This document shows, piece by piece, positions 1 through 3,000 of a stretch of 54,845 bases of DNA; positions within the stretch are counted from its first letter, which is position 1, and every line of letters starts with the position of its first letter. Made by a program: the position numbers. Origin of the DNA: Nitrospinota bacterium (GTDB lineage Bacteria; UBA8248); assembly GCA_030754595.1 (NCBI GenBank), contig JASLZZ010000094.1, forward strand, positions 1-54,845, given 5' to 3'.

Positions 1-3000
1 GCCGCGAAGAGGGAGGTGTCCGACGCCCTCCCCGCGAGGATCACCTCCGCCCCCTCGTCGAGCGCTCGGTTGATGGGCTCGTGGCCCATCATCCCGACGA
101 TGTGGGCGCTGCGATCGATGACCTCCTCCGTCAACTCGGGGGCGGGATTGAGGGGCTTGATGCGACCCTCCCGTAGGCGCTGTTTGAGGTAGCCTTTTTC
201 CTGCTCGCTCCGGATGAGGGCCAACCGGAAACGGAGGCCCTCCTCCTGGGCGATCTCGAGGCAGATGTCGCGCATCCAGTTCACCCCGATGTCGCCTCCA
301 CCGGTGCCGCAGGAGCCGACGATGAGCGGGACGCCCAGCCGCCTCCTTCCCAAGAGCATGAGTCGGAGATCCCTTTTGGTGCCTTCGCGGGAGAAGTGTG
401 GGGACCCCGAGCCGAGAAAGGCCGGACCGGAGTCCGTCGAGCCAGCATCGCAGGCGATGACGTGGGGCTTCAGGGAGATACCCCGCTCGAAGGAGGATTC
501 GAGGAAACCGGATCCGATCACTCCGGTGGCCGCCAATACTTGAACTTCGAGCATGGTGACGCTCCTTCAGGCAAAAGATGGTAACTGTGCAGGTACGACG
601 ATTCTTTGGTTTTGAATTGCCGTCTTAAAAAACAATGTCTTTGATTGTGGAATTTTATCATACCCTCCGAAGTCAGGCCTGTGCATGGCGAATTACTAAT
701 CCACCACCAAAGGATCCGAAAACGCGCCAGCGGGGGCGGAGTAGGTCGGTGCGGGTGTGTTGTGCAGAGCCCTATCGACCCCATCAAATTTGGTGTCCAT
801 ATGGGTGTCCATAACCGGTGTGTATCAGTACCAACCGATGTTATTCAGGCTCACCTCGATTTATATACAACTCTTTGAGATTTATAGCTCAGGTTCACTT
901 GATGCCACTCCCTGTCACTCAGTCCAAAAACCCTGGAAATGCCCTCATCATGCAGAAGGCTTACCGGAAGCTGAACGGTAGCTGAGCCCGACCGGCTCCG
1001 GTTGATCGGCCCTGACAGGCGAAATCGCAGGTTGATTCCGTACTATAGTACGGGGTATAGAATTTCTAATCACCTGCGACCACCAGTGTTTTGCGTAAAA
1101 AGGGGAGAGGGACGATGGTGGAAAAAAAAGAGATTCGGCTCGCCGAAATTTTCAAGATGTTGTTGGTGAAAACGGGGGTTAGCCTCTGATGCGCGCCGTC
1201 TCTGGTCCCGGGTCTCGGGGCCGCTATCATCGGCGCGCTGGGTAGCCTGACGGTTTACCGGCCCTATTTCGTTGCATTTGCAATCGTCGCTCTTGTGTGG
1301 ACGTTCTTTCGCCATTACGGGTGGTGTATATCAAGGTCTTGGGGAGAAGGTTTCTCGGCGATTTTCGTTTGCCTCCGTCCCTCGAGCGAACGGGACGCCG
1401 GGCTCTACATCGGTTCGCTCCTCGTCCTTGCTGTGATTATCGCGCCGCCTTGGAGCGTGACCCAGTATTTCAAACCCGCGAACCCTTGCGCGGTATCCTA
1501 TCCTCGGCAGAGGGTCGTCCCTGCTGCGGAATCTCCGCGTCCCATAATTCAACAGATTTCGGAATCCAGTAATCCCTGCGATTCCGGGAATCAGCACTCG
1601 GTCCATTAATCCCTAGGCCAGTTCGTAGCGATACCCTGGCTTTTCCGGTCCGGCTTGACTTCGTATATGGGCATGGAGTGTGGGTTTAAATCCGGAGGAC
1701 GCCCTCCGGCCCGCGCCGCCGAGGTGAATATAATGACGGATACCGAAGCGAAGAAAAGAATTGGTTGGATGGGTTCTATTTTTTCAGGAGCTGCCTCCAC
1801 TGCTTGATGAGTCCCGGCGCTGGCTCCGAGTCTCGGAGCCTCGATTTTTGGCGGCCTTGGCAGCTTAACGGCCTATCGCCCTTACTTCTTGATTTTTGCG
1901 GCCGCTTCGCTGGCGTGGATGTTTTTTCGCCACTTTAAGAACCGCGTCTCCATCGCATGGACACGGGGCGCGGCTGCGGTACTTGCCGAGTTTAAGCCAC
2001 GAAGCGGCACGGACTACCGCCTTTACCTGGGAGCGGCAGCGGTGATCCTCTTGATGGCCTTTCCGCAATGGGGACGGCCTCTTCTTGCGAAGCCTAACAA
2101 CCCCTGCGCGGCGGCGAATCCTTGCGCTACGACAAATCCTTGCGCAGCGGTAAACCCCTGCGCGGCGGCGAATCCCTGCGGTGCCAAGCCCCCAAGCCGA
2201 AAGTAATTTTCTACACCCATCGAATGGTTTCAATTCGGGATGGCTGTTTGGCGCCTTGCGTGAGCGGCTTGACCCCGTACCTAGGTACAGGCTACAGGAT
2301 ACTCCCATCGCGGCGCGGCCGCCTATTGTTTCGCTGAAGACAGGAGAAAGAAATGAACGAAGGCGTAAAAGAAGTCATCGTTTACTCGTCCACGACCTGA
2401 CCCCCATGCAAGGCCGTGAGAGAGTTTCTCTCACATCATGGTATTCCCTTCACGGAAAACCTCGTGGATCAAGATTCCCAGGCGCTCGAAGCGTTTAAAA
2501 AAACCGGCTCGCGCGGCACGCCTACAATTCTCGTCGGGGACGAGATGGTGATCGGTTTTGATCGCGGGCGGCTTGAGCAGCTTTTAGGAATCAAATAACG
2601 GGAGCCCGGAAAATGGCAGCAAAGGAGCGGTGGCTTTTCTGTCCGGTATGAGGCCAGGCGATTCCCGTACCGGCCGGTACATCGTATGACGAATTGTTCG
2701 ATTGTCCCAACTGCGCGGGCATCATGCTTCGCCTCGGCGAAGAGAACGGAGAAGATGTCCTTCGCGCGGCGCAATTGATTTCTTGTCCTGGCTGCGGCGA
2801 GCGATTGCCCATCGATGATGATACGCCGCCGGGGACCCTCATCCGGCATGACGGGGCCGAGTTTGTCCTGACCAAGGAGTTCGGAGCTTTTGCGCTGGAG
2901 AGTTCGTGAAGATCCCGGAGCGATAACGCTACGGGACAGGAGGCCGATCATGGACGCGATGACGATTGGCATACTTGCCCGGAAGGCGGATGTGAACGTC

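Follow-up and report, generated by a model that had tools for sequence, protein, structure and literature searches.

MerT takes up Hg(II) through a vicinal Cys-Cys pair in its first membrane helix, and a second Cys pair lies on the cytoplasmic loop that joins helices 2 and 3. A bacterial SECIS, the hairpin that directs selenocysteine (Sec, U) insertion, must sit right behind the UGA codon, and each binding event of SelB brings in a single Sec-tRNA. In Escherichia coli fdhF, the hairpin is found just past the UGA, carries G-U in its apical loop, and has a minimal element that begins 11 nt beyond the UGA.

A preprint by Haft & Gwadz (bioRxiv 10.1101/2022.07.06.499078) describes selenoproteins of the MerT family that carry C-U, and the row for a "putative mercuric transport protein" in Table 1 of a 2026 review (PMC13188914) gives the motif C/SxxU with one Sec. 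The same table includes metal-binding families with UxxU or UxxxxU motifs, among them NCBIfam NF041115 (UxxU), in which two Sec codons lie so close together that one downstream hairpin presumably serves both. Consecutive Sec residues have been described in an algal PDI_e selenoprotein with the motif GUGUU, which its paper calls the first with two consecutive Sec (PMC7539508).

Here we analyze a gene in a marine Nitrospinota bacterium (G000; assembly GCA_030754595.1) in which both residues of a MerT-like ligand pair are written as UGA. The organism is a relative of a nitrite oxidizer, and its draft genome comprises 138 contigs and shows 6.4% contamination. The gene lies in a 54,845-nt stretch (contig JASLZZ010000094.1; hereafter, the window).

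A MerT-like gene with two adjacent in-frame UGA codons

A reading frame of 157 codons plus a TAA stop runs along the + strand from an ATG at position 1733 to 2206 (stop codon at 2204-2206), and a Shine-Dalgarno-like GAGGTG (1721-1726) is placed 6 nt upstream of the ATG; purine-rich boxes precede the aligned ATG in five orthologues too. Two TGA codons interrupt the frame side by side, at 1805-1807 (UGA1, residue 25) and 1808-1810 (UGA2, residue 26), in the peptide context A-S-T-A-U-U-V-P-A-L. The C terminus consists of a Cys-rich tail with five NPC(A)xx repeats (residues 123-149; 2099-2188), which is predicted to be periplasmic; repeats of this type also occur after signal peptides and at the C termini of secreted proteins. 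The frame and its TGA pair, as well as the five repeats, had been pointed out in the genome-wide survey's note, and both descriptions agreed with our rereading of the coordinates. This genome has 557 places at which an in-frame TGATGA is flanked by open frames, so the sequence alone is unremarkable; what is remarkable is its conservation and its alignment with Cys-Cys. Three of the 557 places passed a codon-score filter and none of these was selenoprotein-like, but the filter also rejected the gene described here (the UU gene) and is therefore uninformative on other genes of the kind.

The predicted protein matches Pfam MerT (PF02411) over residues 13-113 (profile positions 13-111 of 116; E = 2.6e-05) with 24.7 bits, below the gathering cutoff of 32.9, and NCBIfam MerTP (25.8 bits) and MerT_CopZ_Se (22.3 bits) with scores far under their cutoffs, reproducing the subthreshold scores already on record for it. 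For the latter model (NF045683, MerT/CopZ fusion-like selenoprotein), the score compares with a cutoff of 375 bits; the protein has no HMA domain and ends in the NPC-repeat tail instead. The columns of U25 and U26 read C-C in 46 of 46 distant full-length MerT-like homologues, which were taken from the best 150 matches and chosen blind to the residues at the pair site. The predicted protein thus has a vicinal thiol-type ligand pair in its first membrane helix, with Sec presumably read in place of Cys. It resembles MerT in being small and possibly three-helical, in the predicted soft-metal ligand pair in helix 1, in the xGPxL...LG sequence after the pair and the YRP motif ahead of helix 2, and in having MerR-like and MerE-like neighbors. 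It differs from PF02411 members of the Tn21/Tn501 type in its U-U pair, its score below the gathering cutoff, its Cys-rich NPC tail, the lack of a MerA scoring over cutoff in the genome, and a loop from helix 2 to helix 3 that is devoid of Cys: none occurs between residues 27 and 124, so the second MerT pair is absent, whereas two Cys occupy the loop in the upstream U-C paralogue. It shares with the C-U MerT selenoproteins the replacement of a metal-binding Cys of a MerT relative by Sec, and the C-U form itself also occurs in Nitrospinota (G041 and G005); unlike those proteins, which have one Sec, both pair residues are UGA in the UU gene.

MerT spans the membrane with three helices in about 116 residues. 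An AlphaFold2 model of the protein places helices at residues 4-26, 31-40, 42-78, and 92-109, with pLDDT values of 89-95 for helices 2-3 and only 56-67 for helix 1, and with a disordered NPC tail. A PDB sequence search with the protein found no meaningful relative, the best match being an antibody chain (E = 0.005).

Conservation of the UGA pair

A search of 51 genomes of the phylum found orthologues with two in-frame TGA codons in G050 (86% identity), G049 (89%), G047 (69%), G037 (63%), and G040 (47%). With G000, that makes six genomes, in each of which the codons are adjacent and occupy the same columns; the six genomes represent six Nitrospinota species in three genera. Paralogues read U-C (four), U-W (one, in G037), or C-U (two) at these columns. 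These identities and the paralogue residues are as the survey had given them, as is the adjacency of the codons, which it had noted in five aligned sequences. TGA-TGA is kept even where the deeper pairs have reached saturation at synonymous sites, and it is also present in two near-identical metagenome contigs. A collection scan (alignment A2) made with two narrow peptide patterns found, among genome contigs, none beyond the six known Nitrospinota loci and, among metagenome contigs, the two near-identical copies of the window.

The six UU genes do not form a single clade (p-AU = 0.0065; a branch with 97/98 support separates them), which implies that the adjacent pair arose twice or is ancestral and has long been kept. 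UGA1 is the counterpart of the one UGA that is common to the whole family (see below), and UGA2 is an extra codon carried by the five species that make up the G000 clade. The extra UGA of G040 instead takes the first position of the pair, a column that reads Cys in all 50 of the other, non-TGA rows of a 56-row alignment.

The codons on both sides of the pair evolve as protein-coding sequence. The 24 codons upstream of it are under purifying selection: between G000 and G049, pN is 0.04 and pS 0.55, and dN/dS is 0.04-0.38 in seven of the eight orthologue pairs for which it could be computed (1.02 in G047/G040; the value was not computable for seven other pairs). Downstream of the pair, dN/dS is 0.12-0.67. 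These values bear on the suggestion that the locus is a pseudogene or an assembly error, namely a U-C gene in which TGC has mutated to TGA. A neighboring MerT-HMA gene does carry an in-frame TAG, and the genome is a draft with the contamination noted above, but the pair recurs in six species and in separate assemblies, and most comparisons give dN/dS values well under 1 both before and after it, making such an accident extremely improbable.

The upstream codons bear equally on a second alternative, in which translation starts internally and only the part 3' of the UGA pair is made, as a two-helix protein, with the first 24 codons forming a separate leader peptide or remaining untranslated. Public gene calls do begin downstream: the 10 closest library proteins all start 3' of the pair, 8 close matches in a second library cover 48-71% of the query and are "hypothetical" or nameless, and the public records of the subfamily that we encountered are all unnamed, truncated after the site, and 72-151 aa long. 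This is what would be expected if gene callers stop at UGA. Furthermore, the called starts vary between records and lie within either of the first two helices, the ribosome-binding box precedes the ATG at 1733, and the upstream codons, besides being under purifying selection, align to MerT helix 1 up to and across the pair. We therefore regard an internal start as very unlikely. Overall, the comparative data show that 1733-2206 is a real, uncalled MerT-like gene that requires read-through of two adjacent UGA codons.

Public sequencing runs were also consulted. The earlier note had reported a strain variant reading TGATGG in one run (X16), but this variant was not seen in four runs, and the contig that covers 1456-1996 (X14, X15, and X16) reads TGATGA. 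This contig differs from the window only at 1693 and 1714, so a slightly different strain keeps TGA-TGA. The tables for X14, X15, and X16 are identical and probably represent one data set, and this X16 may not be the X16 of the earlier note. An RNA run (X20) yielded one 184-nt contig covering 1100-1264 only, which corresponds to the start of the upstream paralogue and to none of the UU gene, and so it does not bear on expression of the UU gene.

A putative SECIS hairpin behind the pair

A putative SECIS hairpin with an 8-bp stem and a GUC loop follows the pair on the + strand at 1822-1840, consisting of GGCTCCGA (1822-1829), GTC, and TCGGAGCC (1833-1840). The stem is separated from UGA1 by 14 nt and from UGA2 by 11 nt. 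An earlier statement that the hairpin is kept in all five orthologues is borne out, while the distance given with it, 16 nt from the first TGA, is wrong by one or two nucleotides. All 13 family genes have the hairpin; 103 of the 104 cells are paired, two pairs show compensatory changes, and the GUC loop is invariant, and slid controls reached at most 69% pairing. Within the hairpin, three of five four-fold degenerate columns have identical bases in at least 12 of the 13 genes, compared with 0 of 19 outside it. Part of the hairpin's conservation reflects protein constraint, since it overlaps the conserved peptide L-G-A, and its stability relative to shuffled sequences is not significant (z = -0.92; 34 of 200 shuffles fold as well). 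Rfam gave no match at gathering thresholds in the whole window, and none of its models of a bacterial SECIS matched; at a loose threshold, the region 1100-4200 gave only chance-level snoRNA and sRNA matches (E = 4-8).

When the 13 genes are aligned on the hairpin, one UGA at 14 nt is common to all of them, and the extra UGA of the UU genes stands at 11 nt or at 17 nt, depending on the lineage. The element resembles that of fdhF in lying near the UGA, in having G-U in the loop, and in the 11-nt spacing of UGA2, and it differs in that the anchor UGA of the MerT-like family is at 14 nt. Measured to the start of the loop, the distances are 22 and 19 nt in the window's UU gene and 25 and 22 nt in G040. 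In 19 other predicted cases (17 likely selenoprotein genes plus two in the window) this distance is 16-25 nt, so that the putative SECIS lies at a workable distance from both UGA codons. The paralogues cannot be taken as proof that the hairpin works at both spacings: every single-Sec paralogue has its UGA at 14 nt because a one-codon indel follows the pair. No single-Sec family gene has a UGA at 11 or 17 nt, and decoding at the extra UGA is accordingly without precedent within the family.

This spacing pattern is a point in favor of an alternative in which Sec is inserted only at the 14-nt anchor, while a near-cognate tRNA (Trp or Cys), or SelB bearing a non-Sec amino acid, decodes the extra UGA, giving a U-W or U-C product. 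tRNA-Trp is the usual misreader of UGA in bacteria, one G037 paralogue does read U-W, and the earlier note's TGATGG, not found again, would have pointed the same way. Yet TGG and TGC are each one base away, and the five species of the clade have kept TGA although their synonymous divergence is saturated; at the homologous position all 46 distant homologues have Cys and none has Trp, and the extra UGA of G040 falls at the first position of the pair, where Cys is the rule. Near-cognate read-through reaches no more than a few per cent, and here a Sec insertion would need to precede it. Taken together, these observations make it unlikely that the extra codon is read as anything other than Sec, and this alternative nonetheless remains the most probable of those that we weighed. 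From the comparative record, we infer that Sec is inserted at both UGA codons and that one hairpin serves both.

Selenocysteine machinery and gene neighborhood

The genome encodes SelA, SelB, and SelD, SelD itself containing a TGA, and SelB is found in all five of the other genomes with the UGA pair. Among 46 predicted tRNAs, tRNA-Sec is the only one with a UCA anticodon. TGA is the commonest stop codon, ending 1,148 of 2,763 frames of at least 300 codons, which shows that it has not been reassigned. At least 17 other likely selenoprotein genes are present; genome-wide hunts by hairpin alone (273 candidates) or by codon score alone (1,185) were too noisy, and 44 candidates with Cys near the UGA plus a hairpin were retained, 20 of which were tested.

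Several of the genes around the UU gene, all on the + strand, are themselves predicted to encode selenoproteins. Upstream lies a U-C paralogue of 164 codons (1115-1609; TGA at 1187-1189, hairpin at 1204-1222). Downstream follow a glutaredoxin-like selenoprotein gene with the motif T-U-P-P-C (2353-2598; TGA at 2398-2400, hairpin at 2416-2434), a small zinc-ribbon-like open reading frame that stays with the cluster (2694-2909), and a gene for a MerR-family metal-sensing regulator (2950-3357; TIGR02051, 128.2 bits against a cutoff of 150.85; Pfam MerR_1, 66.5 bits). Next is a MerT-HMA fusion gene (3456-4136) with C-C in helix 1 and the HMA motif U-P-F-T-U (TGA at 3945-3947 and 3957-3959), which a TAG interrupts at 3624-3626, and then genes for a MerE-like small membrane protein (4150-4407; Pfam MerE, 39.4 bits against a cutoff of 22.8; NCBIfam, 50.7 against 80) and a thioredoxin-disulfide reductase (4539-5558; TIGR01292, 368.4 bits against a cutoff of 343.45). 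The cluster of Sec-containing MerT-like and glutaredoxin-like genes with zinc ribbon, MerR, MerE, and thioredoxin reductase is found whole or largely so in five relatives. A mer operon would combine MerR and a transporter with MerA; here no MerA scores over cutoff anywhere in the genome (best, 355 bits against 454), and the cluster has a thioredoxin reductase instead. Hg(II) as the substrate is thus a guess from the names of the neighbors.

The richness of the locus in selenoprotein genes also fits a further possibility, in which the UGA pair is mainly a selenium-dependent gate: most ribosomes would stop, full-length protein would be made only when Sec-tRNASec is plentiful, and the pair would be kept for regulation and not for Se-Se chemistry. 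Two consecutive UGA codons multiply the chance of termination, and such a gate is compatible with all the comparative data, but it leaves unexplained why the codons fall exactly on the metal-binding Cys-Cys and why a single Sec is kept in the paralogues. As the principal role of the pair we consider it improbable, though gating and insertion of two Sec residues do not exclude each other.

Comparison with described Sec pairs

The survey had considered adjacent Sec residues to be unrecorded. As a general statement this fails, because the algal PDI_e protein likewise contains a natural Sec-Sec dipeptide (PMC7539508); for bacteria it held, our literature search finding no case, with Haft & Tolstoy 2025 (PMC12013261) covered through the review that cites it. 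Table 1 of that review (PMC13188914), which includes the Haft & Tolstoy families, contains no UU motif. The algal protein differs in being eukaryotic, with a SECIS in the 3' UTR that serves any UGA of the message, and in having a thioredoxin fold rather than being a membrane transporter. Two NCBIfam families whose names end in UU, ArsM_AhpD_UU and ArsM_DUF2284_UU, were set aside as adjacent pairs, since the review gives their families two or three Sec residues in separate motifs (UxxG, CxxU).

NF041115 and the other UxxU or UxxxxU families also place two close Sec codons in a bacterial metal-binding motif. An example lies 1.7 kb away, in the U-P-F-T-U motif of the MerT-HMA gene (3945-3959), which scores 62.2 bits against NF041115 (cutoff, 95). 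In the UxxU and UxxxxU families, the UGA codons are 9-15 nt apart; those of the UU gene are consecutive, with no elongation step between SelB deliveries. A bacterial Sec-Sec pair with the SECIS next to the codons seems to be unreported, and the UU gene would be the first predicted instance of side-by-side Sec residues in bacteria.

Conclusions

The locus probably encodes a metal transporter of the MerT family whose Sec-Sec pair depends on a single SECIS: an inner-membrane protein of 157 residues in the MerT superfamily that would carry two Sec residues where MerT has Cys-Cys. SelB-GTP-Sec-tRNASec held on the hairpin would decode UGA1, the ribosome would advance by one codon with the hairpin still outside the mRNA channel, and a second SelB complex would decode UGA2. 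Both UGA codons are followed by U or G, which are not leaky contexts, and because two successive SelB events must each beat RF2, the yield may be low. As for function, we propose that the Cys-rich NPC tail in the periplasm may hand a soft metal, Hg(II) being the most likely, to the selenol pair, and the metal may then be passed inward to the glutaredoxin-like U-P-P-C protein, the HMA domain with U-x-x-x-U, and the thioredoxin reductase.

On balance, and with somewhat less assurance, we favor the broader proposition that bacteria can insert two Sec residues at consecutive codons from one SECIS; that marine Nitrospinota have done so at least since the split of the three genera, or have come to it twice independently; and that the result is a vicinal selenol/diselenide site in a MerT-type transporter, forming part of a selenium-based relay for mercury or other soft metals that operates without MerA. 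If both UGA codons are read as Sec, the hairpin can function with its register shifted by 3 nt, SelB can be reloaded or replaced within one elongation cycle, and RF2 can be beaten twice in succession. The gene would then offer a natural system in which to test the spacing rule and how processive bacterial Sec insertion is, as well as a template for engineered vicinal diselenides. Gene callers and selenoprotein finders that allow one UGA, or that take TGA-TGA as a tandem stop, miss such genes.

The affinity for Hg(II) should be far higher in a selenol pair than in a thiol pair, and marine Nitrospinota have come up in discussions of how mercury cycles in the ocean. A selenol pair in a locus conserved in Nitrospinota may therefore point to selenium-dependent handling of mercury in these bacteria.

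Conservation of the UGA pair

The MerT-like gene at 1733 to 2206 on the forward strand, referred to here as the U-U gene, comprises 157 codons and forms an open frame provided that TGA is read through, the only stops inside it being UGA1 (1805 to 1807) and UGA2 (1808 to 1810). GAGGTG lies 6 nt upstream of its ATG (1733), and it ends with a TAA at 2204 to 2206. The product reads G-A-A-S-T-A-U-U-V-P-A-L-A-P-S-L-G-A-S around the pair of residues that aligns with the vicinal Cys-Cys of MerT, and its C-terminal end carries five NPC units (residues 123 to 149; 2099 to 2188). The family scores given in the genome-wide survey's note were reproduced: 24.7 bits for Pfam MerT (cut-off, 32.9) and 25.8 and 22.3 for NCBIfam MerTP and MerT_CopZ_Se, both far under their cut-offs. 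Because in-frame TGATGA flanked by open frames occurs at 557 places in the genome and so is not rare, the case for U-U is a comparative one, which the sequence by itself would not make.

A search of all 51 genomes of the phylum set bore out the note's claim of orthologues with two in-frame TGA codons, identifying them in six genomes of three genera, in each of which the two are adjacent and occupy the same columns. TGATGA was also present in two metagenome contigs that share 99.9% identity with the window and in a contig with two other differences from public runs X14 to X16, whose tables are identical and which were therefore counted as one data set. We consider a pseudogene or an assembly error exceedingly improbable.

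The 24 codons before the pair show the evolutionary pattern of coding sequence. Between the source genome and G049, pN was 0.04 and pS 0.55, and dN/dS was 0.04 to 0.38 in seven of the eight computable genome pairs (1.02 in the eighth, G047/G040; another seven pairs were not computable); downstream of the UGA pair, dN/dS was 0.12 to 0.67. When a profile built from the 13 family genes (the six U-U genes and seven paralogues of the forms U-C, U-W, and C-U) was searched against 1.84 billion proteins, each of the ten closest matches started 3' of the Sec site. The full-length matches were more distant MerT-like proteins, with C-C at both pair columns in 46 of the 46 aligned. A second library yielded eight close relatives, covering 48 to 71% of the query and called "hypothetical protein" or unnamed. 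Judged from these comparisons, the U-U frame is a gene, the translation of which must cross both UGA codons; translation solely from an internal start is very unlikely. One close family member among the library matches, P0007 (151 amino acids), has the called N terminus MAEKGGAGGE and a frame that is stop-free up to V-P-S-L-L-P-G-L-G, with G-E at the expected U-C site; possible explanations are a frameshift in the record and a variant that lacks the pair.

UGA meaning and the selenoproteome

UGA is a stop codon in this organism, and a Sec system is also present. TGA terminates 1148 of 2763 open frames of at least 300 codons, ARAGORN detected 46 tRNAs in which the sole UCA anticodon is that of tRNA-Sec, and SelA and SelB are encoded on contig C113 and SelD, itself with an internal TGA, at 24543 to 25505 of contig C16. 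Among 20 read-through candidates that we picked from 44 (L047 to L066, on contigs C17, C43, C45, C50, C64, C72, C84, C92, C99, C108, C109, and C126), 17 have matches to known families of (seleno)proteins that extend across the TGA, and the selenoproteome is therefore large for a relative of nitrite oxidizers. The families include UGSC, SelW-like, AhpD/YciW-like (seven genes, with CxxU), PrdB-like (two genes), ArsM, ResA-like, and Grx-like. A 90-nt "tRNA-Gly (tcc)" called by ARAGORN at 18725 to 18814 (forward strand) is probably false; at gathering thresholds Rfam detected no tRNA in this segment, which resembles ordinary G+C-rich sequence.

A conserved hairpin and its spacing

A putative SECIS hairpin of the U-U gene, GGCTCCGA, GTC, TCGGAGCC (1822 to 1840, forward strand), starts 14 nt past UGA1 and 11 nt past UGA2. 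It is found in all 13 family genes, with 103 of 104 cells paired, compensatory changes at two pairs, and an invariant GUC loop; sliding the partner by one column as a control lowered pairing to 65 to 69%. Its energy (z = -0.92) is unexceptional for such G+C-rich sequence. The hairpin codes for a conserved L-G-A, and the same base is kept in at least 12 of the 13 genes at three of five four-fold degenerate columns inside it and at none of 19 elsewhere in the gene, which argues for constraint on the RNA itself.

In an alignment anchored on the hairpin (1805 to 1858, 1187 to 1240, and 11 further loci), the distance from one TGA to the stem is exactly 14 nt in each of the 13 genes, both where Sec comes first in the pair (U-C and U-W) and where it comes second (C-U). 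The C-U genes and the U-U gene of G040 have one codon more after the pair, I-G-P in place of V/A-P, so that this UGA stays at 14 nt though it encodes the second residue. It thus looks as if Sec position and SECIS register co-evolve. The extra TGA lies at 11 nt in the U-U genes like that of the source genome (five species) and at 17 nt in G040. The predicted paralogue products show that either member of the pair can be Sec; since all 13 genes have a TGA at 14 nt, they are no proof that a spacing of 11 or 17 nt is functional for the hairpin. Spacing tolerance is favored by the variation seen elsewhere in the genome, the predicted loop starting 16 to 25 nt past the UGA in the 17 family-confirmed candidates and two window genes, a range partly made by a filter that admitted stems starting at 6 to 26 nt. 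The corresponding distances are 22 and 19 nt in the U-U gene and 25 and 22 nt in G040. Decoding of the extra UGA as Trp or Cys would fit the anchor UGA fixed at 14 nt and the existence of a U-W paralogue, but TGA has been retained though a single step would give TGG or TGC, and homologues have Cys, never Trp; we regard such decoding as unlikely.

History and novelty of the U-U pair

The Sec-bearing subfamily forms one clade (support 100/99), within which G040 clusters with the C-U genes, parted from the other five U-U genes by a 97/98 branch. Forcing the six U-U genes together, a group named after the tree was seen, cost 13.9 log-likelihood units (p-AU 0.0065). By this tree, U-U would either have arisen twice or be ancestral and long kept, and both readings speak for function. 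A second UGA would be an easy step, because a Cys codon beside the served UGA is one mutation away and within reach of the same hairpin.

A preprint by Haft and Gwadz (bioRxiv 10.1101/2022.07.06.499078) already describes C-U forms of MerT selenoproteins. A 2026 review (PMC13188914) gives 119 prokaryotic families in its Table 1, with motifs that, as far as the table was covered here, include CU, UxxU, and UxxxxU and no UU. The one natural Sec-Sec found in the literature, whose coverage here is incomplete so that a bacterial precedent is possible, is the GUGUU motif of algal PDI_e (PMC7539508); unlike the U-U gene, PDI_e is eukaryotic and has its SECIS in the 3'-UTR. The suggestion that an adjacent U-U pair was unrecorded therefore stands for bacteria within those sources and falls for life as a whole.

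Gene cluster, protein model, and proposed function

The U-U gene is second in a cluster that runs from an upstream U-C paralogue through the U-U gene, a Grx-like selenoprotein (U-P-P-C), a zinc-ribbon open reading frame, a MerR-type regulator (TIGR02051, 128 bits; cut-off, 150.85), a MerT-HMA fusion (U-P-F-T-U), and a MerE-like gene to TrxR, an order mostly repeated in five relatives, one of them G040, a complete genome. No MerA scored over its cut-off anywhere in the genome. The MerT-HMA gene (3456 to 4136, forward strand) has the metal motif G-M-S-U-P-F-T-U, with in-frame TGA codons 12 nt apart at 3945 to 3947 and 3957 to 3959; U-P-F-T-U is shared with G047. With an in-frame TAG (3624 to 3626) inside helix 2 that recurs in a near-identical metagenome contig, the gene is possibly broken in this population. 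For the upstream paralogue, metatranscriptome run X20 contains one 184-nt contig (depth 4.4) over 1100 to 1264, spanning the start of the gene and its TGA at 1187 to 1189, a weak hint of transcription, though DNA carry-over might also account for it.

An AlphaFold2 model of the U-U protein (mean pLDDT 74) has a hydrophobic helix 1 broken directly past U25-U26 (56 to 67), a long helix 2 after Y-R-P, a helix 3 (89 to 95 for helices 2 and 3), and a disordered tail; a sequence search of the PDB returned no solved relative. The three-helix plan and basic N terminus imply that the NPC tail should be periplasmic, and the neighboring MerT-HMA fusion has its HMA domain at the matching position. NPCAA(K/A) repeats are a widespread Cys-rich module (P0162 to P0169; contigs C14 and C41), found after signal peptides and at the C termini of secreted SoxA/TsdA-like cytochromes c, cytochrome c peroxidase, and YHS and PDZ proteins. 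We know of no described function for them; the module may be a periplasmic metal-binding tail.

That the UGA pair acts as a selenium-dependent gate seems improbable to us. We lean toward a reading, in which we infer decoding, substrate, and direction of transport, that one SECIS serves both codons and the selenol pair relays a soft metal. A single SECIS would serve UGA1 and UGA2 through two successive SelB deliveries. The Cys-rich tail in the periplasm would supply the metal, probably Hg(II), to the resulting selenol pair, which would pass it to intracellular partners bearing selenols and thiols.
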